Part shown: positions 2,935-64,000 of the stretch, one piece after another
Layout: each line of letters starts with the position of its first letter
How positions within the stretch are numbered: position 1 is the first letter of the stretch
Source of the DNA: Psammoneis japonica
Lineage: Eukaryota
Direction: 5' to 3'
DNA: 64,000 nt
Assembly: GCA_008632985.1 (NCBI GenBank)
Contig: QPGO01000200.1
Coordinates: 62,001-126,000 of the forward strand
The notes under the pieces: generated by a model
The model's input: only the letters and a program-made list of their open reading frames with translations
Told to the model about the DNA's origin: nothing
The model's database searches: none
Position numbers and translations under genes: made by a program

Positions 2935-3135
2935 TGCTAGGCTAGGGCCCTAGGGGCCCTAGGTAGTCAAAGTCTAGAAAGTAGATTGGGTTGAAGTCAT
3001 CCCTCTCCTGTACTCTCTCTAGAGAGTCGAGAGAGAAAGTGAGGCACAGCAGTTCAAAAGTGGTAGTACTGATGTAGATATGCCTAGAGTAGGGAATTGC
3101 GGATTGATTAGAGTAGATAGTACGTACGGTACAGT
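2935..3135. repeat. CTAG/CTAC/AGAG-rich low-complexity intergenic tract containing TAGGGCCCTA
   Basis: ctagggccctaggggccctaggtag...tctagaaagtag...ctctctagagag...gtagtact. Confidence 0.75.
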
Positions 3136-6618: not shown

Positions 6619-6730
6619 AGGGCCCTCTGCTACTCTCTACTCTCTCTACTAGAGAGTAGAGCCAGCTCTACCACTCTAGGTACTCTCTAGACGACTCTCT
6701 ACTCTAGAGAGAGCAGTGCTGTAGAGAGAG
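6619..6730. repeat. CTAC/CTAG-rich tract at the left border of repeat block 1
   Basis: agggccctctgctactctctactctctctactagagagtagagccagctctaccactctaggtactctctag. Confidence 0.75.
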
Positions 6731-8020
6731 AAAAATTAGAGGGGAGAAAAAGGGTGGGCCGAAGGTGCGGGGACAGACGGTCGAGAGGAGGAGTTGGCAA
6801 TGGCAGGATGGCGAAGAAGAAGAGCTTGGCATGTGGAGCGATGGTTGGAGAGAGCAAAGCCAAAGTCGAGGCTGAGGATTTGGGAGGCCCAGAGTTGAGG
6901 GGTTGCAGTGTGACAGGAGGAGCCGAAGCAGACCAGTGAAAGTTGTTTCCAGGCTGCATTGGAGTGGGCAAGGAGGTTGGATGGTGCGAGCAGCGAGTTG
7001 GTGAAAGTGGAAGGATGCTTGAGAGTTGGAAAGGGAGGGCGGGCTTGTCCAGGGTGGTTTGGGAGGAAGGGGTGGGATGGAGGAGGATGTTGTGTGGCTG
7101 GTTGAGGTGCCAAAAAAGAGGATGTGCTGGGGAAATGACACCCGACTCTCCACCAAGGTGGTCGAATGTGAAAGGAAGGAGGAGTGGTCCAGCTTGATTG
7201 ACAGCGTTGATGATGTCAGAGCCACGGGGCAGATGGTGTGGAGTGACCAAGAAGCTTGTCCCATGCGCTGCTGAGGCAAGCCTTGCTTGATGGGTTTTCA
7301 GGGACCAGGGACAGGCAACAAACCAGGTGCAGGAGGCGGGGAAGCTGGCGGCACAGTGACACCGATGGCCAAGAATTGGTGGGTGGATGGGGCATTTGGT
7401 GGTGTGGAACTGGGGTGAGTTGAGCACCGATGTCAGTGGGGCATTTGAGGGGGTGGTCAGCTAAGAGGCCGGCAGGGTCAAGGCAAACTTGTTGGTGGGA
7501 AAGGCATGGACCACAAAGAGGGCCCAGTGTTTCAACAATGGTGCAAACGGTGTCTCAAATGTGATTTGGTAGAAGGCCTTCATGCATTTTAGAGCATGCA
7601 AAGGTGTGGTCTCCGCAAGGGTCTGGGTGGGTGCAGCCGCATGGGCAGCTGCATTGGAGCAGATTTGAGGGAATTGTTGGGAGGCACAGCTTGTGCAGGA
7701 GAAGGAATGCAAACAAGTTTGATGAGAGCAGGTTGGAGGCGGGAGCTCAGGAAAGAGAGTGAAGGCACAGGCTTGCCAAAGGAGATGGCAGGGATGGAAG
7801 GGCTGGCTGCATGGAGGGATTGGCAAGGATCTGAGGGAGAGTGTTGTTCTTGTGATGACATGGGTGAAGGTGCTGTGCAAGACCGGTGGGAGTTGGGGTT
7901 CCCCAAACTGCCATCAGCTTCAAAATGGGTGGTGCAGTGGAGGTGCAGTGGGGTGGTGGTTCTGGGCACGACAAAAACGACCCAATGGACCAATGGACGT
8001 GGGTGAAGAAGATGCACCGG
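6730..8020 (-). mobile_element. Decayed 3' end of a non-LTR retrotransposon with a restriction-like endonuclease (zinc knuckle + RLE)
   Basis: Manual minus-strand translation around 7440-7630 gives PDPCGDHTFACSKMH..NHI*DT..LDPAGLLADHP, resembling the D-P-x-G-D-H-x-F-x-C / H-N-x-I-R-D / R-P-A-D pattern. LLPFTFDHLGG follows downstream. Confidence 0.6.
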
Positions 8021-14000: not shown

Positions 14001-14200
14001 GCCAGGGGCAAAAGGGCCGCTGTTGGGACTGGCAAAAAAAGACAGCACTGTGCCACTGCACACAGACTCTCAGAGGAGCACAAACAAAATGGGAAAAGAT
14101 GGTGTCGCTTTCTGAGGTGAGACAGGCCTGAGTGACAAACAACAAAGCATTTCCACGGCAAATTTGACTTTTCCCAGTTGTGCCGTCAGGCAGTTTTCGC
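8020..14200. mobile_element. Heavily decayed repeat/transposon-derived block (family not assignable by eye), depleted of CpG and TpA
   Basis: No coherent ORF. Dozens of short overlapping Cys/His-rich, almost Tyr-free ORFs in all frames. Composition matches the recognisable TE remnants elsewhere in the window. Confidence 0.6.
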
Positions 14201-14499
14201 GTCAGTTCCCACATGAGATTGTTGTTTGTCTCTCGGACACTCGACCAACACTGCCAGCTAGACTACTTGATGTTTTCTTCACCCGCCATCATGGCTGCGG
14301 AAGCAGCAGATAACGATTTAGTTAAGCGCACAACAAGCCAAACACTTCAATGTAACATAAAAGAGATAAATCGCCATCTGCAGTCGGCATCAGGTCGAGG
14401 TCACACTGACCCAGGACACACAGCGTCAAATCCATTTGAAATGCGTGTGTCTGACTCTTTCGATGTGTGCTCCCCACAGTGCTACTATCATATGCGTGC

Positions 14500-14662
14500 T
14501 TGACTCTCCTCTCTACTATACTCTAGACTAGCTCTACTCTAGAGATAAAGTAGCTCTAGCTAGCTAGAGAGAGAGAGAGTAGAGCTCTCTACTAACTCTA
14601 CCAGTAGAGTAGAGAGAGACAGCGAGTACTACCCTACATAGTAGTAGCTACAGTAGTAGATT
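14500..14662. repeat. CTAG/AGAG/GTAG-rich tract at the right border of repeat block 1
   Basis: ctctactatactctagactagctctactctagagataaagtagctctagctagctagagagagagagagtagagctctctact. Confidence 0.8.
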
Positions 14663-30179: not shown

Positions 30180-30745
30180 CATTATTCCGGTTCTTGTGGG
30201 TGTGACACGTACAAAATAAGATGCTACAAACTCACACTGTTGTTGGCACGCTCCACCGCCTCCCACAGATGCCATCACGAATTCCAACGCCGCACCTGCG
30301 TTTCGGCCCCCTAGCATGCCCGATGCTGTTACTCCTGCCCTTGCTGCCGCAGGTGCTGTTGACACTGTTATTGTGTTTTGCCAATGACGTCCACAATGAA
30401 ATGCCAATGACTCACACTTCTTTCATTCTCGCCCCACCGCCTCCCACAGACACTGTCACGAATTCCAACGCCGCACCTGTGTTTCGCCCCCCTGGCATGC
30501 CCGACACTGTTGCTCCTGCCCTCACTGCCGCAGGTGCTGTTGATGCTGTCATTGTCTTTTGCCAATGACGTCCACAACGAAATGCTTGTAACTCACACTT
30601 CTTTCATTCTCGCCCCACCGCCTCCCACAGATGCCATCACGAATTCCAACGCCGCACCTGCGTTTCAGCCCCCTGGCATGCACCACACTGTCAATCCCAC
30701 CCTCAATGCTGCAGTTACTGTTGACACTGTTGTTGTTTTTGCTTC
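30180..30745. repeat. Three tandem copies of a ~190-bp unit
   Basis: Repeated cgcctcccacaga..tcacgaattccaacgccgcacctg..gcatgc..gcaggtgctgttga..ttttgccaatgacgtccacaa at about 30257, 30438 and 30619. Confidence 0.9.
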
Positions 30746-30959
30746 AGGATTTTTCCTGCTGCCATTGGCATTTGTGTGCAAATGCACAAACAGGTGTGAG
30801 GACATTCACACAAAAATGTAATGAACAAGACACAAACTGCCACGTGACCATGACATCACCACATTCTCCCCTGCCACAGGGGTGAAACACATGCAGTGCA
30901 TCAAATGGAATTATGTGCACATTCATGTGTTTACATGTGTTGCTTTTTCGCGCCCGCCG

Positions 30960-31095
30960 AAGACGCAAGAGGAGAAGAAGAGACCATGAGACATGCACGC
31001 GATTCGACCAAAGCAAAAGACCCGCCAAAGCAAGATGCAAGAGAAGAAGAAGAGATTGTGAGACATGCACGCGATTCGACCAAAGCAAAAGACTG
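30960..31095. repeat. Direct duplication of a ~60-70 bp unit
   Basis: gcaagag(g/a)agaagaagag....tgagacatgcacgcgattcgaccaaagcaaaagac occurs twice. Confidence 0.9.
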
Positions 31096-31099
31096 ATGA

Positions 31100-32660
31100 C
31101 ACCACGACGACAGACCGAATGGCAATTGACGAAAACACAGTGTGAAATCAGCCATTTTCACCGGGCAAGAGTGGCGACAGCTGTGCATGACAAAATCACA
31201 ATCAGCGCGAGGAGGTCTGGTGGACAGTGGACAGAAGCAATGGAAATGTTGGCCCTGGCGCCACTCACTTTCCTTCAGCGGCGGCAAGTCTCTGGAAAGA
31301 CACCACCGCAACCTGCACATTTTTGGATCTTGCCACACTGCTCCTTTTTCAGTTTTTTTCTTTTTTCCTGAGCCCGGGCACTTTGCACCCCAGGCTTTTT
31401 GAAAAACACTCTCCTCTGTCATCAAGCCCAGCTGGCGTGGTGGTGAGACACCATCAAAGCTCAGCTCCCAAAGAGAGCTTCTGAGCACCAAAGCATTTGG
31501 CTGCAAGTTCTCTGGCACCACACCACCCTTGCACCCATTTGAAGAAATTCCAGCACTGTCTCCTTGCTCCAACAAAAGCAGCCAAACATGTGGCTGGCAG
31601 CTTGTGCCAACAAGAAGAGACAGGCAGCACCACAGAGAGTGCACACACGCAAGAAGCAAATGCATCTGAAAAGTTTTTGTGGTGCCCGTCATGTCAACCA
31701 ACAGTTTGAGACACTCTCTTGCTTGGGTGAGCTTGGCAGAATTCAGAGCTTTTGTTGCTCTGTGAGCCCCGCCAGAGAACAAAGCTCCTCTCTGCTCATG
31801 GAAAAGTTTTTGCTGCTTTGAACACCCACCTTGTGTTTGTCATGGCACAAGTGACAGCCCTCGAGTTCATTCATTTCTGCAACAGCTGTGGTCTCTCTCA
31901 AACAAACAACAGATCGTGTGCAGCATGTCCAGCAAAAGAAGAGACAACATTGCTGTTGCAAGCAATGACAAGATCCAGGTGGCTCTGTTTCTCTTGCTTG
32001 CTGCAGCCATTTGTTCTGGCACCACTCCAGCCTTGCAGCAGAGGAAATTTTTGTCTCGCATGTCGCGCTCTTGCTTTGGCAGCAGAAGCGGTGCACCTGA
32101 CCAGTGCTTTCTTGGAAACCCCAGGAGCTGGTGCAGCAAAGGGGGCACAAGTGGATTCTCTCATTGTTGCTCAGCTTTCAAAGGAGCTTCCTCTCCAGTG
32201 TGACGTGCTGCTGCATGATGACACGCTGTTGCATGATGGTGCCCCGGCTCAGGGGGGGGTTGAGCAAGCTGTTGCCCCCCCATGGCAGCTCCAAGCTTGC
32301 CAGCAAACATCCAAGTCTTGCCCACTTTGGCACCCTTTTCAACTTGTTTGCTGCTTTTGAGGTGCTGTGCCCCTGACTTGGCTGAGCATCTTGAGCATTG
32401 TCTTGCTGTGCTGCGCTGCCGGCCGCTGCAGCAAGTGTCTCTCGCGAGGAAAGCTCCGCGCGCAGATCTTGGATTTGCAATTTGTTGTGTGTTGCGTTGC
32501 GTCGCCTGTTGTGAAGGCTTTCTACCGATATTTTCGCTTTTGTCTTTCGTCGCGTCTGTCGCAAATTCTTCTGCTGTTTAACACAAAAACGACGATCGAA
32601 ATCGCTGGACCTCTGGTGAACTGGTAAGACGAAGGCGACGAAAACGACGGATACGGGACG
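31100..32660 (-). pseudogene. Decayed gene or transposon ORF with a relatively intact CpG-rich 5' end and a TpA/CpG-depleted body
   Basis: ORF 32178..32663 reads like protein at its start (QKNLRQTRRKTKAK..LQIQDLRAELSSRE) and then breaks into Cys/His-rich fragments. Confidence 0.4.
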
Positions 32661-44848: not shown

Positions 44849-47800
44849 CTGCTATGAATTCAATGGTAGTGATTGTTCGCAATGCAATCCGAACGACGCC
44901 TGTGCATTCTGGAACAATGCGCCATCGTGTCTTCCCCTGGCTCTTGATTGGCCAAGGTGGCCAGTTTGAGAATTTCTTCAACCAGGCGGCTTTGCCCTAC
45001 TCCTTGGCCTGGTGCAGGTGCATTCCAAAAGAAGCTTGGCTCAGTCCATGAAAGCAACTGCCGCCTCGTCTCCGACATGCTTCCGGTGAGACTCGTCTTC
45101 TTCAACACGCCCCAAACACTCTCACACGAAAGACAAGGCGTCTGTAACAGTACTTACGATTCGGTCGCACAGTATGTGCATGGTGATAGTAATCAGATAT
45201 GTAGTTCCCTTTAGGTTTACCTATGTGATGTTGAAGAAAGCCATCTGTAGCTGTCGCTGATGTTGACAACTGTGCGATACATGTGCACCGTTTTTGTCCA
45301 TAGGATTGCTTTCGTTTTCACAACTACGAAACAGTCATGCTTGTGGATGAATCTAGAGTCCCATCTCCAGATCAGGCCAGATGCTGTGTTTAAATTGACC
45401 AGGTATGGAGAAACTCTAGCTAGCTTTGTGTCCATGTTAGAGGCCAAAATCACGTCAACAGAAGGGAACACAGCAAAATACAATGAAGGATGGATGAGGA
45501 GGGATTGTGTGACCTTTGGTGACATGCACCACAATGACAACGTTTCACATAAATGCCACTTTTGTTCTTCAAAGGCCAGAGCAAATGACACTCTACTGCT
45601 CTCTAGCAGAAGCAGCTGCCTGGTGCTGCAGCACTCTAGAGCAGAGAGCCGATGAAGCTCTACTCCAGCAGCCAAGTGAGTGCTGCAGCTTGAGAGTTGT
45701 GCATGAGAAAACAGCTTCAGAACTGCTGAAGTGCCGTTTCTTTCCTTTCCATTGCAAAACAGTTTGAATTCCCACCACTGGCCTGCAGCCATGATTGCCA
45801 GGCAAGCATGAACCAGACCAGAAAGTTGGGGTTGTGTGAGTGCAGCAGTCAATGACCATTTCGTGTCCGTTGATCACCTTTGCCTGAGCACTTCCTGCAT
45901 CCTCTCTTGCACGAGTCCTGGTTTTGACAAATTGATCCTGCAGTTGGACTCATTTGAGGAAAGTGACAATGCAACAAATTTTGTCAACAATGTGCCAATG
46001 CTGGCAGGTTGCATCATTGACATTGAGTTCTTCAAGAAAAGATTGCTGGATGGTGCTTCTCGCTGGCATCCCCATCATCCTGCATGCAATCCTCCTGGTG
46101 CAGCTTTTCAAGACCCCTTGTCAAACCCCAGCGAGTGTTTTAGATTTGAGGACAATGGTCATGATGAGAAGTCACTCCATTTCACAGTGGTGAGTGCAAC
46201 TTTTGCTGTGGGTTTCTGCTTCCTTGTCATTTTGTGGAAGTTTGCCACTCTTCAGCAGCAGAATCAGATTCAACTCATCTGGCTTTCATGCAATTACACA
46301 ACAGTCCTTGCTGAGCAGCAAAGATTGGCAAGCAACCTTCTTGAATCAAAGCCAGTTGACTCCAATGTTTCAAAGTCCCAATTTCATGCATCGTGTGTGG
46401 TTTCTGGCCCCTTTTGTCTCAGCTCTGGACACTGGCCTGCAATTTGGAGGTCGTCACTTGGGCGTCATTTCCAACACCAACATTGCTGCTCATGTTGCTG
46501 GCAAGTCTGTTTTTGTGAACTGGTTCCTTGACTTTTCTTTCATTGTGTCCACAGCAAGGATGGGCCAAAACAGCAAAAACAACGTTGCAGTTCTTGTCCT
46601 CATCTTTTCCAGCTTTTGGCCGCACCTCAAGTTGGTGTCTGGCCTGTGCTGTTCTTTCTGCCACCAACACAACTTGGTGTGTCAAAATGGGAGACAATGA
46701 CTTTGCTTTGGCTTGATGTTCTCTCAAAGTTGTCAGTCGTTGACATGTTCTTTGCTGTCCTGCCAGCCATTGCAGTGCTCGACTTGTCATTTGTGCTGGC
46801 AGGCCCAACAAAAGGTTTTCAAACAAAGGCAATCCTTTTCATGTGAAATCAGTGGTGGCACCACAGGGTCATTGGAGCTGGACAATGCAGGTGAAATGCT
46901 GAAAATGGTGTGCACAGGGATGGGATCCATCAAGAGTGGTGAGAGTGCAGAGATTCCCAATGGGGCTGCTCTTGTTGCAGCAACTCTGGAGCCATGCACA
47001 TCCCACAACTGATGTGCACCACCAACATGATTCCAAATCCATCACGTCACTTCTGCTTTCACCAGCAGTGTTTGAGGGAAGCATGGTGGTGACATGATTG
47101 CAGCCACCCTTGTGAGCAACTTGCAACAGCATGCTGCATTGGCTGTGTGTGGGGATGAGTGAGAAGAGAGAAGAGTTTGGGGAGAGTGAAAAGAACAAGA
47201 GCAACAATTCACAATGATGACAACAACAACAATGACAAACATGACTTGACTGTGGTGGGGACAATCCACTTTCCACTCTAGTGTGGTGGCTTTGACAAGG
47301 ATGAGGCCCAACACCCAACAGGCACACTCCTGATGAGCATGTGGCAGGGCCTGGCCAGCTGGATGAGGCCATTGGCAGGTGTTTTTCACCTGTGGGCAGA
47401 GCATTTGAAAATGAGAAAGAAGGATGGGACTTCCCAGAGAATTGTGCACATTTTCCTGTGCAGAATTAGAGAGACCCATCAACCACACATGACTGCCAGC
47501 AGACCATTTTCAAATCCTTTTTTGAATGCCATGCATCCGGGTTTGATTCTGTTTCAGCACCATGTGGAAGCAACAGCAGCAAGGCAAACTGAAAAAGACT
47601 CAACTCTTGATTTCAACTTGCCTTTGGAGCAAAGTCATTTTCATCAATGATCAATGAGATGCGATTGCTCAACAGCAATGCAGCTGCTGCAAGAGTCTTC
47701 TGGGGTGGGATCCAGCTGAAGCTGTTGGGTGCCTTGGGCAAGACACATCATCACAATCAGCACATCAAAACCATGCAGTGTGCTCTCATGCACAAACAAT

Positions 47801-48279
47801 TTGTCCTTGTTGTGGAGTCAAGTTCATGCAGTGACTTTCATTTTGCTGGCATCCATGGCTTGCAGGCAATGCCATGGAAATTGCACCAAAATTCAGATTG
47901 TTGGTCCTGCAAATGTGAGACCATGCAAAAGAGCCAAGTGTTTGCAAGTTTGAGAGTGAGAACAAGAGAGAAACAGAGACATTGCACAAAATGCAAAAGT
48001 GGCTCACCTTCAATTCATTCTCAGCCCTCCCCTTCCACACTTCATTTTGCAACTCCCACTGTTGTCATTTTAACACAAACAAACAAGTGCAAAGAAAATG
48101 CACAGCACTTGAAATGAGAAGCATGCCACTTCAAATGCTCTTTTCAAATGCTCCATTTTTCCATTGTGGCAAAGTGCGGAGAGTCTTTCAACTCACCTCC
48201 TGGTTCTTGTTGAGTTTTTTTCAACTCGCCTCATGACACCCATGCTGAAGCCACACAAGCCTCTGGCACAGGCAAACTG

Positions 48280-48810
48280 AGAATTTGCCCCCATTTGAAA
48301 GACATGACCTGCCCACAAATCTGCCACCATCCTGAACTTTCATGAACAGTCTAATTCCACCACCACCCTAAAAATTCAGGACTGCAGTGGCCAGCAGCAA
48401 CCACCATGGCTTAAGTTCACAACTGCAATTCTGTCATGTCACGCAACACTGTGATGGTGTCCAACCAGCCTGAATTTGCCACCATCCTAAAAATTTGCCA
48501 CTGGCTTAAATTCATGACTTGCACAAATCCGCCACCATTCTAAAAATTCACAACTGACCCTGATTCACAACTGGCATAAATTCGCCACCATCCTGCACAA
48601 TTTACGACTGGCCTGAATTCACAACTGGTCCAACTCCGCCACCTGTCATGTGGCAACAGGACCCTAAATTCATGACTGGCCCAAATCCACCGCCATCCTA
48701 AAAAGTTCATGACTGGCCTGAATTCACAACTGTCCCAACTTCACCACCATCATAAAAAGCTCATGACTGGCCTGAACTCACAACTGCCCAAAACTCTGCC
48801 ACCTGTCACT
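48280..48810. repeat. Degenerate tandem array of ~40-55 bp units
   Basis: Recurring ccgccaccatcctaaaaattca(c/t)gactggcctgaattcacaactggcccaaa. Confidence 0.85.
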
Positions 48811-50139
48811 GTGATGGAGGTGGATGAGAAGAGGAAGAAAGGACAGAAGCAAGCTTTGGAGACGCAACACAACATTTGCAAGCATTGCTGCAACACAGAC
48901 ATTGTGCCACCAGGTGCATTTGGCGAAATCCCAATGAGTGTTGTGGGATGTGTTGGAGGTGGCCGTGTGGAGCACTTGACAAATCTGAACCTTTTTGAAA
49001 CTGCAATGGTGGCACATGCAACAACAAAGCATGCCTTGAAAGACAGCAGCATTGACAATGCTGGCAATGCTGCAATGTTGGTGGGTGACTTGGAGCCAGA
49101 GGAGGATGGTGCCATGTGTGTTGGAAATTCAAACAGAACAAAAACTGATGTCTTGTTTCAAATGCAAAGTCAGCATTTGACAGCTCAAAGTGCAAAAATC
49201 AGGATCTTGTTTGTGCCTCATTGACAGGTGTCATGGATGTGGTGCACTTCTTTTTTGACAGCAGCACTGCAAGAAACTCAGAATCAGAATCATGTGCAGC
49301 AGTCACGGCAGCATCTTGATGCAGCAAGGCTCTTCCAATCACTTGGCAATGTCAATGATGCAAAAAAGGAGATGCAGCTGCATCTCAAAAAGTCTCAAGT
49401 TAAGGGCAACGAGAACAAATTGCTGGATGTGAGTGCCATTGATGTGTGTGCATGTTGTTGTTGTTTTGTCTTCATCAAAATGTTGTTTCTCCTTTTTCTG
49501 CCTGTCACGTCTGAAAGGACATGAAGAGGATCAAAATGCTGATCAAGCAAGGGAGTCATCAAAGAGGATGGTGCAAGGAATGGCAAGTTTTGCCATTGTT
49601 GTTTTGTCATCATTGAAATGTTGCTCACTCCTTTTGCCATCATCTGAAAGGATGCACAAGAGAATCCAGTGGCTGATTAAGCAAGGGGGTCACCAAAGGA
49701 TGCAGGTCAGGATCCGGGCTCACAATTGGTCCGCTGTGGCTTTTGTGATTGCCCCAGGCCTGATGAGCCTGTTGGGACAAGAGATGAGGCAAAACACCAT
49801 GATTGCAATTGTGGGTTTGGTTTGTGGTCATCAAACAAGTGCTGGAACTTTGAAAAGTGTCATTGTTGCTTGCACAGTGTTGGGTGCCATGCATGCCTTG
49901 ACAAGTGCAACATGACATTGTTGACTTGCAGCCACCAAGATTGTTGCGGCAATGTGCAACTTCATTTTTGCATCAGAGACTTGCATGATTCACAGGAAGT
50001 CCAGATGCATGGACAATGGATGGCAATGCACATCACATTAGAAAGCAAGGAGTGACACCAGGAATGGGAACTCTTCCATGAGTGTTTGCATTTGCAGCTG
50101 TCCCGCCAGCCCCTGTCAAATTCACTCTGCTGCAGGCAT

Positions 50140-51060
50140 TGCTCAAGAAGTGTTTGGACTTGTGGGACAATCAATGACAATGACATTGTCTGCAGAATCA
50201 GAGCTTTTTTGTGGTGCTGCTTTTGTTTCCATGGCCCTGGAGAGCAGATCCAAATCCGCATTCAGACATCCAACCAATGCTGCAATTGCGCACCAAAATC
50301 CCAATGTGTTTTGCTCAAGTGGGCATTGCTCCAGCAATGCTCAGAACAGTGGGACAACAAATGGTGGTGACAACATCTGCAGAACAAGCACTTTCCAATG
50401 GTGTCACTTTTCTTTCCATGCCTTGAGTGCATCCAATTCTGCTTTGAGACATCCAGATGGACCCACATTTGCGGACAACAAATGGCAGTGACAACATCTG
50501 CAGAACAAGCATTTTCCAATGGTGTTGCTCACATTTCCATGCCTGAAGCACATCCAATTCTGCTTTGAGATCTCCAGATGGCCCCGCATTTGCACGCCAA
50601 AATCCTGATGCGATTTGCTCAAGTGGGCATTGCTTTGACAATGCTTGGAATTGTGGGACAACAAATGGCAACAACAACATCTGCAGAATGAGAGCTTTTC
50701 AATGGTGTTGCTTGTGTTTCCATGCCTGCAGCAGATTCAATGCTGCTTTGAAATCTCCAGATGGCCCCACATTTGTGCGCCACACAATCCCAGTGCTTTC
50801 CAACAGTGTTGCTTTTGTTTCCACACCCAAAGCACATCCAACTCTGCTTTGAGATCTCCACATGGCCCCGCATTTGCACGCCAAAATCCCAGTGCAATTT
50901 GCTTAAGTGGGTGTTGCTTCAGCAACACTTGGAGTTGCTGGGCAAAAAATGGCAATGACAACATCTGCAGAATGGGAGCTTTTCAAAGATGTTGCTTGCA
51001 TTTCCACACCCCATGGATCCAATTCTGTTTTGGGGTCTCCAAATGACAACACACTTGTGC
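50140..51060 (-). pseudogene. Decayed leucine-rich-repeat (BspA/LRR_5-like) gene seen as ~190-bp tandem repeats
   Basis: Repeated acaacatctgcagaa..ttccaatggtg units. Minus-strand reads TIGKCLFCRCC..L and IPSIVK, like the BspA consensus IPxSVxxIGxxAFxxCxxL. Confidence 0.55.
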
Positions 51061-53399
51061 ACCAAAACCCTCTGGCTGGCCAGCTGGCAGCAGGCATTTT
51101 GCTGGCACACCTGCAACATCATGTCACGGCTCCCCAGGGAAGCAACACTCTGTGGCACAGGCATTGCTGACACATGCCTGCAACAGCAGGTCTCAGATGG
51201 TGGCTGCTCCAGATGTTGCAAAGCCTTGATCTGCGGACACACTGATGACATTGCAATCAAGGGACTTTGGTGCATGATCCCTTGTTTTAATCTGCTGACA
51301 CAGGGTGCCATTCAGATGCAATTGCAGGCTTGCAGACGGGCACGCAAACATTCACTCACCCTCACATGCACTGCCCTCACAAAGGTGTGTTGTTGCATTT
51401 GTCAAGAAATGCATTGCACGGGTTTGAGCAAACATGCGATCTGCACCAATGCCAAGCTTCTTTGCACTTTACATTGTCAGCAGCGGGAACAGCCAGCTGC
51501 TTGGGCCATTTGCACATCCAAGTTCAATTGATTCATGGGCACTGCTGTTGAGGTTGTCATTTTCATTTTCCAGTCCAGTTGGCAATTCACAGCCCAATGT
51601 CAGAAGAGGTTCATGTCATGTCCTCACATGCAAAACCAACACCCACTGAACATGAAGTCAGCACATGATGTGAAGACACATCCAAGTCTCTGCAAATGCA
51701 AATCACAAATGCAGTTGTCCCACTGGCTCCACTGATGCAGAGTCCAATCTTGCTCATGAGCTGATGTGGGGATGCATGTCACCAACATCATGCCACATGG
51801 ACCACACTGAGACAGCATCTTAATGGCATGTGTGTGATGATGCCGGTCATCCCAGATTGAAGATGGATTGCTGCATCACACAGGCCACGTGAAGAGCTTT
51901 TGTGCCCCATCATCTGCACTGACTGGTCCAGACCCAAGGCGGCAACATCGGCAGACAGAGACATCAGCAAAGGAGCACATGTCGAGCTCCAGTTGTTTGG
52001 GCATGCCAAGGTGGTTCCATGACACCTTGTGCCGCATTCCATGTGTTGTTCACATTTTCTCCTTCTTGAGACAGTGGCACATTTTGTCATGGAACATTGG
52101 GAAGTGTGGTGCCCACATTGCCATTGCTTCTGGCCTGATCAAGCGGCAGAGGAATCTCTCATCCAGATGCATCACAAGAAACCTGCATCCCTTCTCCTGC
52201 TCATTCTCAGAACCACCAAAATCCATTGAATTGGCAAGCTTTTTGCAAGAAAGAGCCATTGACATTTTGGACAGCATGCACATCAAACGCTCTTCTGCAA
52301 AATGGCAGAAGCTTCCATTGTGATTCTGACCCCTGTTTTGAGGAACTCAGACATCCTTGTCCAACTCAAAATTTTGCAGCAAAGCCTGAAGTTTGTCCTT
52401 TGTCAGCCTTGTTGTCTCCTGTTTGGCTCTGTTGTTGCATTGCAATGCATCAATTGTTTTTTGGAGTTAGATGACCAGACATTGCTCCTTCTTCATCTAA
52501 GTCCAGCAAGGCTGAATCCAGCTCAGCACACACAATTGCCAGACCAAAGCAATTGCGTGCTTTTGCAAGGTGCTGGATGGTGAGCAAAAGTGGGAATGTG
52601 ATGGACCATGTTGCCAATGAGCCCCAATTTTTTGCATTGCATTCAGCACACTCTTGCCCATGCCAAGCTGCATCTGATGACTTTGAAGATGCAAATCCAG
52701 ATCCTTGCTTCTGCACCTGCTTTGCACTCATGAGCTCTTTGACCTTAGATGACATTGTGGCCTTTTTCTTTCATGGCAAGCTCCACCCAGAAATTTTGTG
52801 CCTCCTCCCTGTTACAGGATTGCACAAAAAAAGCTTGGTTGATTGTTTCTTTGCAATCGCACTGCATCTTCAAGCCTCTGCTCTCTGCTTCTTGTTTGCA
52901 GAAAGGCTGGTGCAAAACCTGTGGAAAAATCTGGCGCGGGCTCCTTTTCATGAAATGATGGACACGACTGAATGCAAATGACCTCAACGTGCTTCTCATT
53001 CCTGAACAACAGCTGCGTTTGCATCTTGTGTTGCACATTGGAAACCATCTGCCTTAACACGTCATCATCAGAAAGAACTCAAATGATGTCATCAGTGTGA
53101 CATCAGGGTTCCTTCTCATGCCATCAAATGTCATGCAGTGGCCCTGGGTGCTCTGGAGCAGAGAGTGTGCAGCAGAGAGTGGCTGTCTGCCTTTAGAGGG
53201 CACTGCTTGCCAAACATGCTGCCAGTGCACCCATCATCATTGCAGTGCTGTTGCTCGTGTGCATTGCATTGTGAGTGAGGGGAAAATGTGGCTGCACTCT
53301 CTCTCTGCCACCGGTGCGGCACAGAGATGCCATGCAGAGCATGCAGCGAGAGAGTCAGTTGGAGCATTGGTGCTGCCCACTTTCACCTTGGCACCTTTC

Positions 53400-54132
53400 A
53401 CCTGCATGATGCAACTCATCCAGCTCACCCCAGCTGCCTCTGTTGCCTCCCCTCTTGGATACCAACACCTTGCAATCGACGTCACCACCCCCAAAAACCT
53501 CCCCCATCACCTGCTCCTGGCTTGCCTGCCCCAACGCAGAGGCACACCACATGAGCACCAAACGGGGAAGTTCAACAGAACCCATGAAACCCAAAATGAA
53601 GCCACCCTTGCATCCACTCTCAACAACGCTGGCATCTGCCTAATTCCTTTCACCATCAACCACATGGGAGCCCCTGGCCTCTTCGCTCGTCGCCCACTTT
53701 TCGGGGCCAACCAAGAACACCCCATCCCTGCCCCCCACCGGCCCCTCCCTGGACTGCTGAATCCTCCTTCCAACACCCAGCCACCCATGCTGCATGCACT
53801 CACGCCCAACTGTCACCATCTGCCATTCTCCCTGCAGCTGTTGCCGCTTGGCAGAACATGTCCAGCCACTGCGAACTTCGGCCTCACCCAGCCACCACAC
53901 TTCCACTCCATCACAATGGGGCCTTCAAAGCCTGAGCCTGGCAATTGCCAGATCACTCGCTGACCAACTGACCCGATGCTCCACCAAACTACAATCCCAA
54001 CTCTCCAACCCCAATCCGAAACCCATCCCTTTTCCTGCCTGCATGACTCAGTCAGTGCAGTGCGCAGGCAGCACTGCAGTTCCACCCTTGCTCCGCGTCT
54101 GTCCCACCCCCGCGCCACTCTCTACTAGGTGA
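53400..54132 (+). mobile_element. Decayed 3' end of a second RLE-type non-LTR retrotransposon
   Basis: LAIDVT..H..E..KF..LIPFTINHMG, resembling LLPFTFDHLGG in the element at 6.7-8.0 kb; C-rich sense strand. Confidence 0.55.
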
Positions 54133-54330: not shown

Positions 54331-54844
54331 ATGAGTTATCGCGAAGATGAAGAACTGGAGGGAGAAGAAGAAGAGGCCGTCTCCGTCCCTCAACAGGTTG
54401 CCGAGTTGGCTCAGGCTAGTGTGCCCGATTCAATGAAAGGCATCCGTGCATGCAAGCGTTGCGGTATCCTGAAGACATTAGATCAATTCATCGTTGAAGG
54501 GTGTGAGAATTGTCCCTTTCTCGAAATGGTGCGAAAACTGCTGTTTGTTGCTACCTCGATTTATCTTGTGCGCCTGTGTTCATTGCCGTGTCTGCCTATT
54601 ACGTTGTGTTAACGTGTTGCAGGTGGACAACCCCGAGCGATCCAACATGTGCACTACCGCATTTTTTGAGGGCCGGGCCGCTATTATGGATCCCCGTGAG
54701 AGCTGGGCTGCAAAGTGGATTCGTACGGACAACTATCTTCCTGGCGTGTATGCAATATCTGTCACTGGTCAGTTCGACAGGGAAATTGAAGAAGATTTAG
54801 AGAATCGTGGCATTCGTTGGCGGTGTCGACCAGCGCCAGCCTAA
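54331..54844 (+). CDS. SPT4: Transcription elongation factor SPT4; intron 54529-54622
   Basis: RACKRCGILKTLDQFIVEGCENCPFL; CTTAFFEG..MDPRESWAAKW..PGVYAISVTG. Confidence 0.95.
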
Positions 54845-56267: not shown

Positions 56268-57248
56268 ATGATGACCAGTTTTTCTGTGGTTGTGTCTGCT
56301 CTTGCAGCTTGCCATGTCGAAGCGTTTTCATGTCTGGATTCGCAAAGGGTCGAATTGACACGAGAGATTTGAATGTTGGCGATAAATCTGAAATCCCCTC
56401 TCGTCGCGACGTGTTCAAGGAATCAGTTGGGGTGCTAACTGCGAGTGGTCTTGGATATTCGCTATTGCTTCAACCTGCGACTGCCGTGACTGGTGCCCAA
56501 GACGGAAATCTCCCCGATCTTCCTCCGGATGGCGTTCGAAGCTATCTTCAATACCGTGTTGGTTTGCAAATTTCTGCTGATTTCTATTTGTGGGAATTGC
56601 AGGATATGTGTGGGGATACGGACAGGTGGGGAGAGCTGCAACAGATATTTAGTGCCAGCAATAACAGAGGACAAGGCCTCCCTAGTCGTGCCGAGCGTGA
56701 CTTCTACAATCCCATGAGGATTCTGAGCTTGAGCTTTCCACCAGATGTTGGAGATGCGCTGAGGGATGATCAGTTCAAGTTCGAAAAGGCGATGTCAATG
56801 GTAACGAAAGCAACAGCCGGGATACGCAGAGACCTGCCTGTAGAAATTGACAGGGGAAGTGTCGTCTCTGCCAAAGAAGGATGGGAACTTGGGAGGGTAG
56901 CTCTCAATGACTTCTTCAACACTCTCAATGAAGCGACTGGACTTTCGGAATTGAAAGGGATCCCGCCATCTGGGCCCAATCAGACTAGTGAGTATGGAAG
57001 GAGCCAACGCAGATATTTTGAGCTGATGAAGAAAACGAAGCTATGCCAGAATAGGGGCGGTCCTACCCTATCTCAGGCATGGGGACAACTGATGGTACGT
57101 GAACAAGTGTTGCCTATCTTGGAAAAATGTGTTCCTTGACCAAGCACATTTAATGAAGTGTGGTCTTCCTCCTCTCGTGTCACAGGTAAGCGGTTACATG
57201 CAAGATTCGTGCGGAATCCCTGATTTGGAGAAATATTTCTATCAATAG
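56268..57248 (+). CDS. Putative plastid/thylakoid-targeted hypothetical protein; intron ~57094-57186; apparent 1-nt frameshift near 56340-56365
   Basis: Signal-like MMTSFSVVVSALAACHVEAF from ATG 56268 lies one frame off ORF 56309..57139, which has a twin-arginine-like SRRDVF plus a hydrophobic stretch ending ATA. Last exon VSGYMQDSCGIPDLEKYFYQ*. Confidence 0.7.
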
Positions 57249-57659
57249 ATCGGAGCTCGCCATAGGAGCACGGCACGTTCAGTTTTTCTGGAGCCTCTTT
57301 TAAGTCAGAACCAGTGTCCCTTAAAGGCGATTATATTTAGCCTGCTAAGTCGTCGTGCGTGTATAGTGCTGTCATCACACACATCATGGTGTCCCCACTC
57401 TCATGAAATCCGTACAATGTTTCGTCCGTCCGACAGCCTTGCTGATTCGTTGCTTGCCAAAAAAGAAGCACCACCTTGACCTTCACTGTGTTTGTCACAC
57501 AGAACGATGACACTGCCCTTGTTGGAACTCAACAACACAAGGCTTCAAAGATCAATGCGACGTGTCCGATGTGGCAACCAGTGCGATGAGAAATGAAGTC
57601 TGCTTTGAGCAGTGCAATTCAGCACTGACACCCTGAGAAACCCCTGTGAGATGACAGAA

Positions 57660-59190
57660 CCTCGGCAATGTTTTGGGCAAAGTGCCTTGTGGTTTTGGCT
57701 GGCTGCAGTGTTGACAAACAGCAAAATGACTTGAGTGCTTCACCACAAGAAAGTGATTGTGCTGATGCTGTTTGTTGGAACGTCAGGACATTTTTGAGAA
57801 AAAGCTGGCAGCAGGCCTTTTGTGGGCAACAGGTTGAGAAATGTGGCAGCTTGCCGAGCAGTGCAACAAATCATTTGATCTCAGCAGCAATGTGTTGTTG
57901 ATTCTTGATGCCAGCCAGGTGAAAAAAGCAAATGCTCCCCCCAGCAGCTGCACCTCCCAGTGGCAGCAGCAAGCGGTCTGCCTCTTTTTCGGGGTTTTTC
58001 TCTGGTTGCTGGTGGTTGGGTGCCAAGTGCCAAAAAACAAGAGGCAGCCTCTTGTGCTCCCCTTGGTGCCTGTGCAGACCAAGCTGTTCTTTCATCCTGT
58101 TTTTGCACCTTGATGAAGTGCTTCTTTTGTGCAAACCAGCAATGTGCCAAGGTCTTTGCTGCTGCTGCTGCTGCTGCTGCTTTTGGCTGAGGCATTTTGC
58201 CAAGAGAGCAAAGGCTGTGCTGTGTGGGGCTGGGCAAGCAGCACTGAGACAAAAAATCTCTGCTGCACCTCATCTGCTGCCAGGGAGGCACAGCACTCTG
58301 TGCCACAGCTGCTGCCAGGTGGCAGCTCTTGATGCTTAAAAAAAGAGGGAGCCAGCCCCACACACACACACACAAACATGATGCTCCTTGGGCCACCCGT
58401 GCCAAGTGTGGCAACCACTGGTGTTTGTGACATCTCAAAGACCCAGGTGCAGATGGAGTTGCAAAGGTTTCACAAAAGCAGCATCATTCATGGCAAAGCA
58501 CACAGCAAATGCATCAAAGCACTTTTTTCTCATGGTGTTGCCCCCACACTGGAGAGCTTTTTGTTCTGCCTTGTTTGGCTGTGCTGTGTGGCAAAGAAGA
58601 AGCATTGCTGAGCAGAAATCCAAAAAGCAAAAAACAAAAGGTGGGGGCTCACTTTGCTTCTTGAGCACACATGAAAAATTGGATCCCAAAGAACAAACAA
58701 CCAGCCCCCAGCAGTGAGACATGCACCAGTTTGCCCCCAGCCAGACTGCTGCAGAGTTGACAACACTGCCTGTGTGGCTGCATGCCACAAAACATGTCCA
58801 GACACAATGCATTTTTGGCAGAGAGGACACCATGCTTGGATGTAGGTTGCAAATGATGTTGACTGCAATGCATGTCCAAATGTGGCAAACAAAAATTGTT
58901 TGCTCATCCTGTTGGAGTGAGAAGTGTCTCTGCTTCTGGGGCTCAGACTTGTGAAATCACAAGTGTCCTGCAAAATGATGAAGCACATTGTGATTGGTGT
59001 CCTCATGGTCAACAATTGCCCTGGAATGGTGAGCCAGCCCCTTTTGTTGGTTCTCTGCTCTTTCCCTTGGCTTTGCCAATCTTGTCTTTTTTCAAGGTGT
59101 CCAGAACATTCTTGTTCTCATTGTTCTTGTTCCTTTTTTTGCTGGTCACACCAAATCCATTGGCCAGATTGTTTTCAGCACTGTTTCTGC
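57660..59190. repeat. Copy A of a ~1.5-kb repeat (possible LTR-like direct repeat)
   Basis: Colinear with 61570-63060 and 63060-64000, e.g. gcagtgcaacaaatcatttgatctcagcagcaatgtgttgttgattcttgatgccagccagg. Confidence 0.9.
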
Positions 59191-59289
59191 CTGAATCTGC
59201 ACTGTCAAGATCCTGGGTCATGGATTCATGCTGGCTGGATCTGCCACCTGCTGTTGGTGGCTTTGCAGCTTCCAGACATGTGTGCTCTT

Positions 59290-61500
59290 TGTGTTCCAAT
59301 GCACTCTTGCAACAATGACTCAGGTTGTCAACTGGGGCACTCTTGTTGCCCATCATGCTCATGATCTGATTTAGAGTCTCAAAATGATTGGCTGCAACCC
59401 TTGGCTGCAATGGCTTGGTAAAGCAGTCAGCAAGCATGGCATTGGTTGGGCAATGCCCAGCTGCCAAATTGCCCTTCAGAACATGGTTGGCCACAAAAAA
59501 TGTGGTGACTTGCTTGGTCCTCTTGCTGCTCAACCATTCTTTGCCAACAAAATGGAGCTCTCATTGTCCTGGCATGTTCTCCTTGATCTTGAATCCTTGT
59601 GCTTCCACAAAGTTTCTGGTGGTCCAGTTTGCTGTGCACGACCCTGACAGGCTCACTTTCAGCAGAGCTGTGCATGTTGCAACTTCTGCTTGGGCAAAGT
59701 GCTGCTGATGGCACCCCCCTCCAGCATTGCTGCGAGTGTCCAGTGTGACCTCTCATGTTGGGCTGTGCTGCACATGCTGAGGCATCAATCTGCTGTCCAA
59801 CAATCAATTTTGTTCAGGAACAAGATGCCTGGTGAGATGACACAAATCCTCTGCCTCAAATGCCTGATGATTTTGTGGAAAATCTGTTCATGTGGAGTGT
59901 GAGTGGCAGACCCTTTGTAAACTGTGGAAGGTGCTTTCTGACTCCCACGCAAGTTTCTTCCGGCTGTCAGACCCAGAGTCACAGATCTGGGTGAATGAGA
60001 ACAAGAATCTTTTTGCAGTCTGCAGGTTGGGCCTGGTCCTCTGTGACAGGAATGTCATCTTTGCCACAGTCAAGTGGAAAGTTGCCTGGTTGTCATGTTG
60101 CCCAGTGTTCCCAGGCTTTCCTCCTTGCTCATGCCAAACAAACAATTTGCTGCAGGAGCAGGGCTCTCCCTGGACTCTCCCCATCCATTCCTTCCAGCAG
60201 TGAGCCAAGGAGTTTGTTTGTGCATTGGAACATGCTCACTTTGACCCTCCCCTTTGCACTGCAGTTGATGGGCTGGTCAGGCCAAAATGTTCTTGGATGC
60301 CTTCTCAGGCAGTGGCAAGCCCAAAGTGTTTTGCGCATCCCAGCTTGAGGTCTCCAATCAGCTTGATGACTGCATTGTCAGGATCCATCATGCACAATGG
60401 CCTTGGGTCATCCACATGCCACAGGATGAGCATTGTTTCCCACTGTTGATTTTGTTTGCCACACACGTGGCCCTGGCTTTTTCTTCTTTCATGCTGACAA
60501 TGCTCCTGTCACCATGCTGCGCAGTGCTTTCTGGAGCTTTGCATGTGGCACCTCTTTTCTGTTCTCACAGACCACACATCTTGTTCCGGCACAGGCTGCA
60601 TGCCTGGTGCACTCATCACATTTCTTGTCAATGTCCTTTTTGATGTCAGCATTGCCAGCTTGGCTCTTGTTGTCTGGCTTGTCATTGTGGGGGACATGTT
60701 GGCACAGGCTGTCACCTGATCCCTGGTGTCATCCTTGATTTGGTCCTGTGCATCTGCTGCATCCTGCTTTGTTCCTGTGCTTGTGGCTGCATTGTGCCCC
60801 ACTCCCACTGTTCTTGCCAGTGGGGTTCTTGGTCCACTCCTGTGGTTTGAGAGTCATTGTTGGCTGTGCCGGTGTCAATTGCTCTCACATTGAGGCCATC
60901 TTGGGAGGTGTCATCCATGTTCATGTCCAGGGGGGTCTTGTCATCCAAGTGAAGGTGTTCAGCGGGAGTGTTTTGGGTTTCTGCTTGCTCAATGTCTGAG
61001 CAAGTTGCAAGCAAAAATGCCATCACCACAGTGCCAGAGTCTGCAACAGGAGGTCATGGTGGTCACTGTCATCATTGTCAAGAGGTTTTGGAGCTCACAT
61101 CCTCCTCCCAATTGTTTTGAGACTTTGCACCCTTGTTGATTGACCCCCACTCTGATCCTAGAAGCTGTTCCCTTTTGGCACCTTTTTGTGCCTGCAATGT
61201 GGTGCACCTGGTCAGTTGTGACATCAGACAATGGGTGGTGGTGCTGTCCAAGCATCATCCTGTTGCAAAGCTTGCAAAGCCACAGAGTGATGGCACCAAT
61301 CACCAACGGCACTGCTGGCTACACTTTTGTCATGGTCCTTGTGTGTCTGTGTGCCTTGCCCCAATTTCATCATGGACAGTGCTTGTTGCAGTCAACCTCA
61401 GACCAGTTGCAACCACTGATGGACTGTGCTGACTGGAGATGCCTTCCTTTGCCACAAACCAGTTCAGCCAGAACATGGCTCTCTGCACTTTTTTGATGAC
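59290..61500 (-). mobile_element. Decayed Ty1/Copia (diatom CoDi-like) pol: post-integrase linker, RT and RNase H
   Basis: VIGAITL..DVTTDQVHHIA; FHLTVAKMTFLSQRTRPNLQTA; IDASACAAQPNMRGHTG; SSKRTKQV..FFV..HCPTNAMLADCFTKPLQ (Copia consensus YCPTxxMxADYFTKPLQG). Confidence 0.9.
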
Positions 61501-61569
61501 CAGCTGGTGTGAGAAATTGTCTCTTGCCAAAAAATGAGCACCTTGACCTTTGCTGTGTTTGACAGAACC

Positions 61570-63060
61570 ACGGCAATGTTTTGGGCAAAGTGCCTTGTGG
61601 TTTTGGCCAGCGGCAGTCTTGACAAACAGCAACATGACTTTTCAGTGCTTTCCAACACAAACTGTGATTGGTGTTGATGCTGTTTGTTGGAATGTCAGGA
61701 CAGCATTGACAAAAAGCTGGTGGCAGGCCTTGTGGAGAACAACAGGTTGAGAAAGGTGGCAGCTTGCTGAGCAGTGCAACAAATCATTTGATCTCAGCAG
61801 CAATGTGTTGTTGATTCTTGATGCCAGCCAGGTGAAAGAAGCAAGTGCCCCCCCCCTCCCCTCAGCGGCTGCACCTCCCAGTGACAGCAGTGGATGGTCC
61901 ACCCATTTTGCAAGGTTTTTCTCTGGTTGCTGGTGGTTGGGTGCCAAGTGCCAAAAAACAAGAGGTGGCCTCTTGTGATCCCCTTTGGCACCTGTGCAGA
62001 CCAGCTGTTCTTTTGTCCCTTTTTGCACCTTGATAAAGTGCTCTTTTGCAGACCAGCACTGTCAAGGTCTTTGCTGCTGCTTTTGGCTGAGGCATTTTGT
62101 CAAGAGCAAAGGTTGTGCTGTGGGGGCTGGGCAAGCAGCACTGAGACAAAAACATCTGCTGTCGTGCCTCATCTGCTGCCAGGGAGGCACTGCACTCTGT
62201 GCCACAGCTGCTGCCAGGCCACCAGGCAGCTCCTTGGGCCACCCAGCACACTTGTTGTTGAGCCATTTTGTTGACCACAGGTGCTGGCACTGCCAAGAGT
62301 GGCAACCACCAGCAAGTGAAATCTCAAAGACCCAGGTGCAGATGGAGCTGCAAAGGTTTCAAGAAAAGCAGCACCATGGCACAATGCACAGCAAATGCAT
62401 CAAAGCACTCTTTTCTCATGGTGTTGCCTCCACCCAGCCACAGAACTTCTTGTTGTGACTTGTTGGGCTGTGCTGTGTGGCAAAGTAGAAGCATTGCCAG
62501 GCAGAAAACAAATGATGGGGGCTTGCTCTGCTTCTTGAGCATGGGTGGAAAATTGGATGACAAAAAAACAGCCAGCCCAGGAGTGAGGCATGCACCATTT
62601 TGCCCAGCCAGACTGCTGCACAGTCAACAATGCTGCCTGTGTGGCTGCTCACCACAAAACCTGTCCAGATGCAATGCATCTGTGGCACAGAGGGCCTCAT
62701 GCTTGGATGCTGGTTGGAAACGATGTTGACTGTGCAATGCATGTCCAAATGTGGCAAACAAAGATTGTTTGCTCATCCTGTTGGAGCAACTCCTCTGCTT
62801 CTGGGGCTTGGATTTGTAAAATCACAAGTGTCCCATAAAAAGATGCAGAACACATTGCAATGCATGGGTGTCAGGGTCAACAATGATTGCCCCAAAATGA
62901 GCCAGCCTCCTTTGTTGGTTCTTTGCTCTTTCCCTTTGCCCATCTTGTCTTTCTTCCTGGCATCTGGAACACTTTTGTTCTCGTTGTTCTTTTTTTTCTT
63001 GGTGGGCACAACTCCATGGGGGGCACACCATCTTCAGCACTGTTTCCTCCTGAGTCTGCA
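61570..63060. repeat. Copy B of the ~1.5-kb repeat (more diverged)
   Basis: Colinear with copy A, with indels. Confidence 0.9.
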
Positions 63061-64000
63061 GCAACATGACTTTTCAGTGCTTTCCAACACAAGACTGTGA
63101 TTGTGTTGTGATGCTGTTTGTTGGAATGTCAGGACAGCATTGACAAAAAGCTGGTGGCAGGCCTTTTGTGGGCAACAGGTTGAGAAAGGTGGCAGCTTGC
63201 CAAGCAGTGCAACAAATCATTTGATCTCAGCAGCAATGTGTTGTTGATTCTTGATGCCAGCCAGGTGAAAAAAGCAAATGCTCCCCCCAGCAGCTGCACC
63301 TCCCAGTGGCAGCAGCAAGCGGCCTGCCTCTTTTTCGGGGTTTTTCTCTGGTTGCTGGTGGTTGGGTGCCAAGTGCCAAAAAACAAGAGGCAGCCTCTTG
63401 TGCTCCCCTTGGTGCCTGTGCAGACCAAGCTGTTCTTTCATCCTGTTTTTGCACCTTGATGAAGTGCTTCTTTTGTGCAAACCAGCAATGTGTCAAGGTC
63501 TTTGCTGCTGCTGCTGCTGCTTTTGGCTGAGGCATTTTGCCAAGAGAGCAAAGGCTGTGCTGTGTGGGGCTGGCAAGCAGCACTGAGACAAAAAATCTCT
63601 GCTGCACCTCATCTGCTGCCAGGGAGGCACAGCACTCTGTGCCACAGCTGCTGCCAGGTGGCAGCTCTTGATGCTTGACAAAAGAGGGAGCCAGCCCCAC
63701 ACACACACACAAACATGATGCTCCTTGGGCCACCCGTGCAAGTGTGGCAACCACTGGTGTTTGTGACATCTCAAAGACCCAGGTGCAGATGGAGTTGCAA
63801 AGGTTTCACAAAAGCAGCATCATTCATGGCAAAGCACACAGCAAATGCATCAAAGCACTTTTTTCTCATGGTGTTGCCCCACACTGGAGAGCTTTTTGTT
63901 CTGCCTTGTTTGGCTGTGCTGTGTGGCAAAGAAGAAGCATTGCTGAGCAGAAATCCAAAAAGCAAAAAACAAAAGGTGGGGGCTCACTTTGCTTCTTGAG
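63060..64000. repeat. Copy C of the repeat, in tandem after B and truncated by the window end
   Basis: Nearly identical to copy A (ORF 63129..63428 vs 57783..58082). Confidence 0.9.

Follow-up and report, generated by a model that had tools for sequence, protein, structure and literature searches.

A Ty1/Copia-type pol relic in a repeat island of the diatom Psammoneis japonica, with probable strand-symmetric TpA hypermutation of DNA alongside CpG decay

Repeat-induced point mutation (RIP) of ascomycete fungi converts cytosine to thymine mainly at CpA, thereby enriching TpA. For mutation-accumulation lines of the chlorarachniophyte Bigelowiella natans (Rhizaria), the available text of a preprint reports that two silent regions of integrated viral DNA gained 231 mutations, 230 of them A>G or T>C, that the viral-region mutations all fell on TpA at ~6e-7 per site per generation, and that the genome holds 124 clusters depleted in TpA and enriched in CpA and TpG, with enrichment of reverse transcriptase (RT) and DDE Pfams (bioRxiv 10.64898/2026.01.13.699255). 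An ADAT2-like DNA adenine deaminase is proposed there (Mettrop et al., bioRxiv 10.64898/2026.01.13.699255), and the same portion of the text mentions neither CpG nor diatoms. Diatom transposable elements (TEs) are CpG-methylated by DNMT5a, and the RID-related DNMT4 is present in some diatoms, according to the accessible part of PMC9998398. Our literature searches turned up no account of TpA erasure in the repeats of diatoms, and a term search of the available text of PMC2806351 (Maumus et al. 2009, on the diatom Copia lineages termed CoDi) and PMC8147415 returned none of the terms RIP, dinucleotide and TpA. Here we analyse a 64,000-nt stretch of P. japonica DNA (assembly GCA_008632985.1, contig QPGO01000200.1, positions 62,001–126,000 of the forward strand; hereafter the window), in which a relic of a Ty1/Copia-type pol gene (59290–60150) lies within a repeat island from which TA and CG dinucleotides have nearly vanished. 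The island was probably hit by DNA-level, strand-symmetric TpA>TpG/CpA hypermutation, with CpG decay alongside.

Four blocks of the window, together 23,921 nt as against a remainder of 40,079 nt, hold TE relics and repeats and have sharp TA edges:
6783–14197, no strand: block 1, TA/CG-erased, holding a second Copia-like relic
30932–32522, no strand: block 2, with 0 TA and ~50 CG left (CG partly lost)
45662–53989, no strand: block 3, TA/CG-erased, delimited by composition
57414–64000, no strand: block 4, TA/CG-erased, delimited by composition, holding the pol relic

Observed/expected ratios (o/e) in the blocks were 0.04 for TA, 0.15 for CG, 1.82 for TG and 1.87 for CA, compared with 0.60, 1.01, 1.15 and 1.13 in the remainder of the window, corresponding to a loss of 93% of TA and 84% of CG. 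The stretch 57559–63998 has 11 TA, 29 CG, 837 TG and 675 CA, and the relic at 59290–60150 has 3 TA (33.8 expected) and 4 CG (51.4 expected) beside 117 TG and 82 CA. Expressed as frequency shifts between blocks and rest, TA (−0.0367) and CG (−0.0504) together lost 0.0871 while TG (+0.0484) and CA (+0.0399) together gained 0.0883, all other dinucleotides shifting by at most 0.019 (AA, GA and AT by at most 0.017). The CG loss (0.050) is too small for the gain in TG and CA (0.088), and the remainder matches the TA loss. AA was not depleted (o/e 1.25 in the blocks, 1.14 in the rest).

The loss is also spatially abrupt: a TA density of ~39 per kb gives way to 0 at a distance of tens of bases from TA-dense non-coding DNA (e.g. 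14483–14599 and 57301–57413). At the block edges TA loss extends beyond CG loss, and the 238-nt flank to the left of the first long terminal repeat (LTR)-like repeat contains 0 TA (P=8.7e-5) and 9 CG. Because TA loss exceeds CG loss at the edges, in block 2 and in this flank, the process is limited by region rather than by element and can be told apart from CpG decay. It acts in place on DNA, and TA loss runs ahead of CG loss and also occurs without it. Stop codons follow the same composition: six-frame counts in block 4 were 261 TGA, 8 TAA and 6 TAG, against 575, 240 and 306 in ordinary DNA, and the near-absence of TAA and TAG therefore leaves many overlapping long open reading frames (ORFs) in all six frames, which are spurious. 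Such ORFs run in every frame across all four blocks and reach 302 aa (e.g. 30931–31839).

The direction of change can be read from repeat copies within and beside the blocks:
30207–30746, plus strand: three tandem 180-nt copies over the edge of block 2, with 6, 0 and 2 TA and 10, 9 and 8 CG
57652–59201, strand not assigned: LTR-like direct repeat copy 1, with 79% identity over 1594 nt to copy 2 and 96% to copy 3
61560–63060, strand not assigned: LTR-like direct repeat copy 2, flanking the pol relic opposite copy 1
63059–64000, strand not assigned: LTR-like direct repeat copy 3, continuing past the window end

Columns 180 and 219 of the tandem array read TA, TG and CA over the three copies, and seven further columns read CA versus TG. 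Only a TA ancestor gives this triplet of states in two steps, so TA is ancestral at these columns. LTR-like copies 1 and 2 show TG opposite CA at 30 sites (CA>TG 16, TG>CA 14), no other kind of double difference being found more than 4 times, and by our own count the orientation of these swaps is not clustered (20 runs among the 30 sites). The LTR-like copies mutated independently of each other. CG/TG and CG/CA variable columns are also present among the repeat copies, and transversions separate copies 1 and 2 at 107 of 1538 aligned sites (7%). The two are possibly not the LTRs of one insertion, since the element is truncated at copy 2 and copy 3 abuts it.

The pol relic between these repeats was mapped with a profile of 17 phmmer-matched proteins of at least 1000 aa, which gave the following pieces (i-E, independent E-value):
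61360–61512, minus strand: upstream pol piece, profile positions 348–398, i-E 6.9e-5
60407–60430, minus strand: LILWHVDD, the RT catalytic box, in which His is the usual residue of the family
59951–60100, minus strand: Copia pol relic between RT and RNase H, profile positions 963–1010, i-E 5.1e-8
59640–59810, minus strand: RNase H piece with IDASAC in another frame, profile positions 1032–1086, weak i-E 0.15, colinear
59402–59656, minus strand: C-terminal piece with HCPT and ADCFTKPLQ, profile positions 1084–1173, i-E 3.9e-16

Searched with phmmer against a set of 1.84 billion representatives, a read-through frame of 369 residues matched 184 proteins at E≤1e-3 (lowest E 3.5e-12), and 13 of the 15 relatives scanned with Pfam carry RVT_2, the Ty1/Copia-type RT domain. 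Profile pieces 963–1010, 1032–1086 and 1084–1173 follow one another in order on the minus strand, with the RNase H/C-terminal end colinear with the RT, and the WHVDD box recurs in the relatives P0004, L038 and L061. These relatives, the colinear pieces and the box together indicate a Copia-type identity. Three-frame translation of the minus strand gives several frameshifts and in-frame TGA stops, and the 59290–60150 region is best read as what is left of a dead Ty1/Copia-type pol gene, truncated at its 5' end and frameshifted. The relic itself matched no Pfam family over 10 ORFs and six read-through frames of 57.3–64 kb, none of the 4 candidates from a word-indexed search of proteins with the 62-aa C-terminal piece was significant, and rve (integrase) was absent at E≤0.01 from the long relatives scanned and from L038.

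The original prediction had read the relic as a pol gene whose Tyr codons were changed to Cys or His at three motifs. All three are present on the minus strand, HCPT at 59444–59455, ADCFTKPLQ at 59405–59431 and IDASAC at 59772–59789, the last in a reading frame that differs from that of the other two. The consensus it assumed is partly borne out, as Tyr is frequent in the three columns of 150 relatives aligned to the profile, but His or Phe is also common there. Together with one site that it had not cited, the codons and columns are:
59453–59455, minus strand: CAT (His) before CPT; column Y83 H53 W7 F4 of 150, not diagnostic
59423–59425, minus strand: TGC (Cys) in ADCFTKPLQ; column F62 Y28 I19 C8 H8 of 150
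59772–59774, minus strand: TGT (Cys) in IDASAC; column F40 Y29 H7 C1 of 77
59572–59574, minus strand: TGC (Cys) before QDN; column Y70 F21 H19 of 146

Family members with His or Cys at the cited sites had been named in advance as counter-evidence, and the HCPT column supplies them. The additional TGC lies in a third reading frame, within a weak profile piece (positions 1112–1129, i-E 0.097), and is the cleanest candidate for a Tyr-to-Cys change in the relic. The TGY:CAY ratio over the four Cys/His sites is 3:1. Over 239 aligned columns, 97 of which carry the commonest residue, the relic has no Tyr where 7.2 are expected, with 9 Cys (3.9 expected), 10 His (7.4 expected) and 17 Gln (8.7 expected), and its Cys/His codons are enriched in Tyr-rich columns (permutation p=0.018). 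As a functional Copia pol must have carried Tyr codons, the TA-free state is derived. Tabulating the fate of codon positions 1–2, as had been suggested, showed TA kept in 0/5 cases versus 67/114 for non-TA (p=0.014; AA 10/17, GA 9/19, CA 7/8); the loss of TA goes in the predicted direction, though the signal is thin, and the Cys or His outcome was found in 2/5.

A clearer codon record came from related elements. Metagenome contigs were scanned with the alignment of relatives, and the best 80 of 585 confirmed loci were analysed; their median o/e of 0.64 for TA and 0.865 for CG provides a baseline for intact elements of the clade, and their seven Tyr-plurality columns contain 397 Tyr and 33 Cys/His among 547 codons. 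Locus L061 has o/e of 0.23 for TA and 0.81 for CG with an ORF at 337–1986 and 0 stops in 544 aligned columns, and locus L038 has 0.48 and 1.02 with an ORF at 118–3768 and 1 stop in 1180 columns; RVT_2 is above the Pfam cut-off in both. The TA-fate check proposed for the relic could be applied to these better preserved elements, with Tyr-class codons kept at 2/14 versus 193/246 for other classes in L061 (p=1.5e-6) and at 3/18 versus 319/399 in L038 (p=4e-8), while the control loci L026 and L025 keep them at 15/18 and 11/18 columns. The 27 changed Tyr-class codons of L061 and L038 comprise 11 TGY, 11 CAY, 2 TGG and 3 TTY, the TGY:CAY ratio being 5:5 in L061 and 6:6 in L038. By our own count, which is not robust, strand-coherent patches show no clustering in L061 and a hint of it in L038 (4 runs among 13). 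The nearest DNA relatives of the two loci are 64–71% identical, a distance too great for tabulating TA fate site by site. TA persists in the final Tyr codons of L038 (RYFF, EYCPT) and in its 3' flank, so that the mutated zone stops inside the ORF near position 3600.

The same footprint appears at the protein level. Among the 150 relatives, seven proteins low in Tyr, each from a single contig of JGI/IMG, ENA or Logan origin, have H14 C6 F4 V1 W1 Y1 in the Tyr columns, compared with Y505 F102 H76 C8 plus others in the remaining 143, so that the Cys/His share of non-Tyr residues is 20/26 versus 84/259 (p=1.7e-5). One of these sequence relatives, P0001 (127 aa, a JGI/IMG contig), is near kin of the L038 family, has 0 Tyr and carries two copies of the C-terminal motif, VECCPT and VEHCPT, which would represent both outcomes of one Tyr codon side by side. 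The change from Tyr to Cys or His is a genuine footprint of strand-symmetric TA loss in this Copia clade, shown in related elements.

Sequencing-run data agree with the assembled letters. Contigs of run X1 (~61x word depth) match the block, one of them, of 780 nt (59889–60667), with 0 other letters, and because these contigs reproduce the block, a base-calling artefact does not account for the blocks. Run X1 paralogues were compared at 80% likeness, with 40 of 201 difference rows listed. Among the matches listed, at least 6 TG/CA pairs separate paralogous contigs from the window and no clearly unmutated paralogue was present. Run X2, which is RNA-like with GT..AG joints, has no cover over 57514–61500 and was used neither for nor against expression.

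Comparison with the described systems places the window closest to B. natans. As in the available text on that species, TpA is hit alone and becomes TpG or CpA according to strand, within bounded regions of silent foreign DNA (silence being presumed for the window); TpA-restricted change, strand-symmetric outcomes and bounded regions were all found in the window or its relatives. The long-term TpA-depleted, CpA- and TpG-enriched clusters with RT and DDE Pfams in that text are likewise a close counterpart. Differences from what the text reports are that de novo mutations were seen in B. natans and the end state alone in the diatom, that erasure is more complete in the window (TA o/e 0.04 versus a Rho of 0.45 in the B. 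natans region derived from a nucleocytoplasmic large DNA virus (NCLDV)), and that 84% of CpG is also lost, the targets being LTR-retrotransposon relics and tandem repeats. RIP shares with the window dinucleotide-context transitions at the DNA level, the killing of repeats in place and possible spill over their edges, but its outcome is the opposite, as TpA is depleted 15-fold in the window and CpA/TpG enriched. The dependence of RIP on duplication is also not evident, the first tandem copy being spared and the second and third hit. Decay of methylated transposons resembles the window in CG>TG/CA change within repeats and in the 84% CG loss of the blocks, yet it leaves the TA loss unexplained, and the block edges, L061 and L038 lose TA while keeping CG. 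ADAR and APOBEC enzymes likewise inactivate retroelements by deaminase-type transitions; their substrate is RNA or single-stranded cDNA and the changes lie on one strand, whereas both strands of the window are equally affected, as are repeats and flanks.

The explanation that we favour is that four putatively silenced repeat islands underwent strand-symmetric hypermutation of DNA, in which TpA would become TpG or CpA, with CpG decay yielding the same two products in parallel. As TAY codons are the only ones obliged to contain TA, Tyr codons would vanish with Cys (TGY) and His (CAY) as one-step outcomes, and the stops TAA and TAG would vanish likewise. The chemistry would be deamination of the adenine of TpA to hypoxanthine on either strand; by analogy with the proposal for B. 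natans, a DNA-acting adenine deaminase is the most likely agent, with CpG presumably lost through deamination of 5-methylcytosine. We infer that silent foreign DNA is targeted as a defence. The window is probably a case of TpA-targeted DNA hypermutation in a lineage other than B. natans, seen in its end state alone. Three claims of the original prediction are upheld on this evidence: the direction TA>TG/CA by the absence of Tyr, the mass balance of the blocks, the TA/TG/CA tandem triples and the L061 and L038 codons; strand symmetry by the TGY:CAY ratio of 11:11 in the two loci and by the 16 versus 14 double differences of the LTR-like copies; and action after insertion, without RT bias, by the occurrence of TGY and CAY on the sense strand and by the involvement of non-retroelement tandem repeats and of the 238-nt flank.

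Other explanations were weighed against the same data. A by-product of base modification, in which a symmetric TpA mark in silenced repeats mispairs at replication and no dedicated deaminase is needed, is unlikely but has points in its favour: TpA is self-complementary like CpG and would suit a maintained symmetric mark, outcomes are symmetric per site with no long strand-coherent tracts between the LTR-like copies (20 runs/30 sites), and CpG loss accompanies TA loss in the block cores. A TpA-specific mark in diatoms was, however, not found in the literature searched, the strand-coherent patches hinted at by runs of CAY-TGY-CAY in L038 do not suit it, and TA loss where CpG is kept (edges, L061, L038) is therefore not tied to CpG methylation. 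Passive ageing, by which a genome-wide TA bias and CpG methylation would have brought very old neutral relics to equilibrium without any targeting, is quite unlikely. It would draw on the o/e of 0.60 that TA already has in ordinary window DNA, genes included, and on the 7% divergence of the LTR-like copies by transversions alone, but it has to account for the drop in TA density from ~39 per kb to 0 over tens of bases beside TA-dense non-coding DNA, for adjacent tandem copies with 6, 0 and 2 TA at similar overall divergence, and for L061 and L038, which lost most Tyr codons with their ORFs open (0 and 1 stops). By simple arithmetic, the 93% TA loss amounts to ~2.7 hits per TA, against ~7% for transitions outside pyrimidine–purine (YR) steps in the LTR-like copies.

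Editing before integration, either by ADAR-like A-to-I change on retroelement RNA or by deamination or misincorporation during reverse transcription, is very improbable. Retroelements are among the affected sequences, and ADARs favour a 5' U according to the available text of the B. natans preprint (bioRxiv 10.64898/2026.01.13.699255). Against this, the sense strand carries both TGY and CAY (11:11 in L061 and L038 together, 3:1 in the relic), non-retroelement tandem copies differ by TA/TG/CA, AA is not depleted (1.25 vs 1.14), and TA is absent from 238 nt outside the LTR-like repeat; the two sense-strand outcomes, the tandem repeats and the flank exclude a bias at the RT or RNA level. Barely credible is the combination of ordinary family variation at the His/Cys sites with an artefact of assembly or base calling at modified bases, for which His in 53/150 relatives at the HCPT column, Cys in 8/150 at the AD-C column and the possible identity of the only matching run with the assembly source would speak. 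The ~61x contigs nevertheless reproduce the block over 780 nt and paralogous contigs differ from it by TG/CA swaps; the frameshifts, the truncation and the 7% transversion divergence represent real decay, and Tyr-to-Cys/His changes also occur in JGI/IMG, ENA and Logan contigs.

Several points count against TpA hypermutation of the relic. The three cited residues alone are weak evidence, given the natural His and Phe alternatives at these sites among relatives. The five Tyr-plurality columns of the relic read TTC, TTC, TGC, ACA and CAT, two of five as predicted, and TA fate was read from profile columns of relatives rather than from an intact copy of the same family; the codon signal inside the relic is in the right direction but thin. 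L038, L061 and the low-Tyr proteins belong to anonymous hosts and are not the window's own relic. Run X1, the only run matching the stretch, is possibly the source data of the assembly, and among the matches listed TA stands opposite a window TG/CA at 58844 alone. Slow decay also contributes, because the LTR-like copies are old, with 107 transversions over their 1538 sites.

If TpA hypermutation is correct for the window, a second supergroup lineage, the stramenopiles beside the Rhizaria, would possess a defence that resembles RIP but is opposite to it in chemistry (A:T>G:C at TpA). What had been an observation in a single species would become a comparative problem, with the enzyme searchable by phylogenetic profiling. 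We tentatively entertain the broader idea of TpA editing of duplex DNA as a defence common among eukaryotes, found in diatoms (in saturated form, beside CpG methylation) and in several uncultured protists, the presumed hosts of the near-intact metagenome Copia elements with rewritten Tyr codons; this may well prove too wide. Were it widespread, the enzyme could be found among deaminase-like genes common to genomes with the signature. The erased islands yield long false ORFs that gene finders are likely to call as genes, and because of these ORFs and of TE content missed by Pfam, both the annotation of TEs and the prediction of genes would be biased in such genomes. The Tyr-to-Cys/His footprint offers a simple means of detecting the process in metagenomes at the protein level.

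Other parts of the blocks also contain decayed repeats. In block 1 the minus strand holds the second Copia-like relic (12505–10107), with weak colinear profile matches to positions 172–200, 506–678 and 987–1015, and the read-through frames of this region matched no Pfam family. The string DPCGDH, which the original prediction had taken for a LINE (long interspersed nuclear element) zinc knuckle, is present at 7606–7623, while Pfam was blank for block 1 and lent that assignment no family support. The second string it had invoked, IGKCLFCRC, there read as an LRR relic, is present twice (50373–50399 and 50494–50520), and its copies sit in ~121-nt tandem repeats (50135–51071) inside block 3. Two long ORFs, one at the outer end of block 1 (6699–7460, minus strand) and one at that of block 3 (53058–53963, plus strand), encode alike peptides, LLPFTFDHLGG... 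and LIPFTINHMGA..., which suggests inverted copies of one element family; TA is gone from both ORF regions and CG just half lost. A (CTG)n microsatellite within the LTR-like repeat (58160–58190 and 63505–63525) varies in length over the three copies. The genes of the window have long exons, and by a single Atlas hit a TFIIE-alpha-like protein of the window lies nearest to a cluster in which Bacillariophyta is the most frequent phylum. Run X2 contigs skip 94 nt (54528–54621) and 91 nt (57094–57184) with GT..AG borders, representing two short introns in the ordinary genes that lie between blocks 3 and 4.

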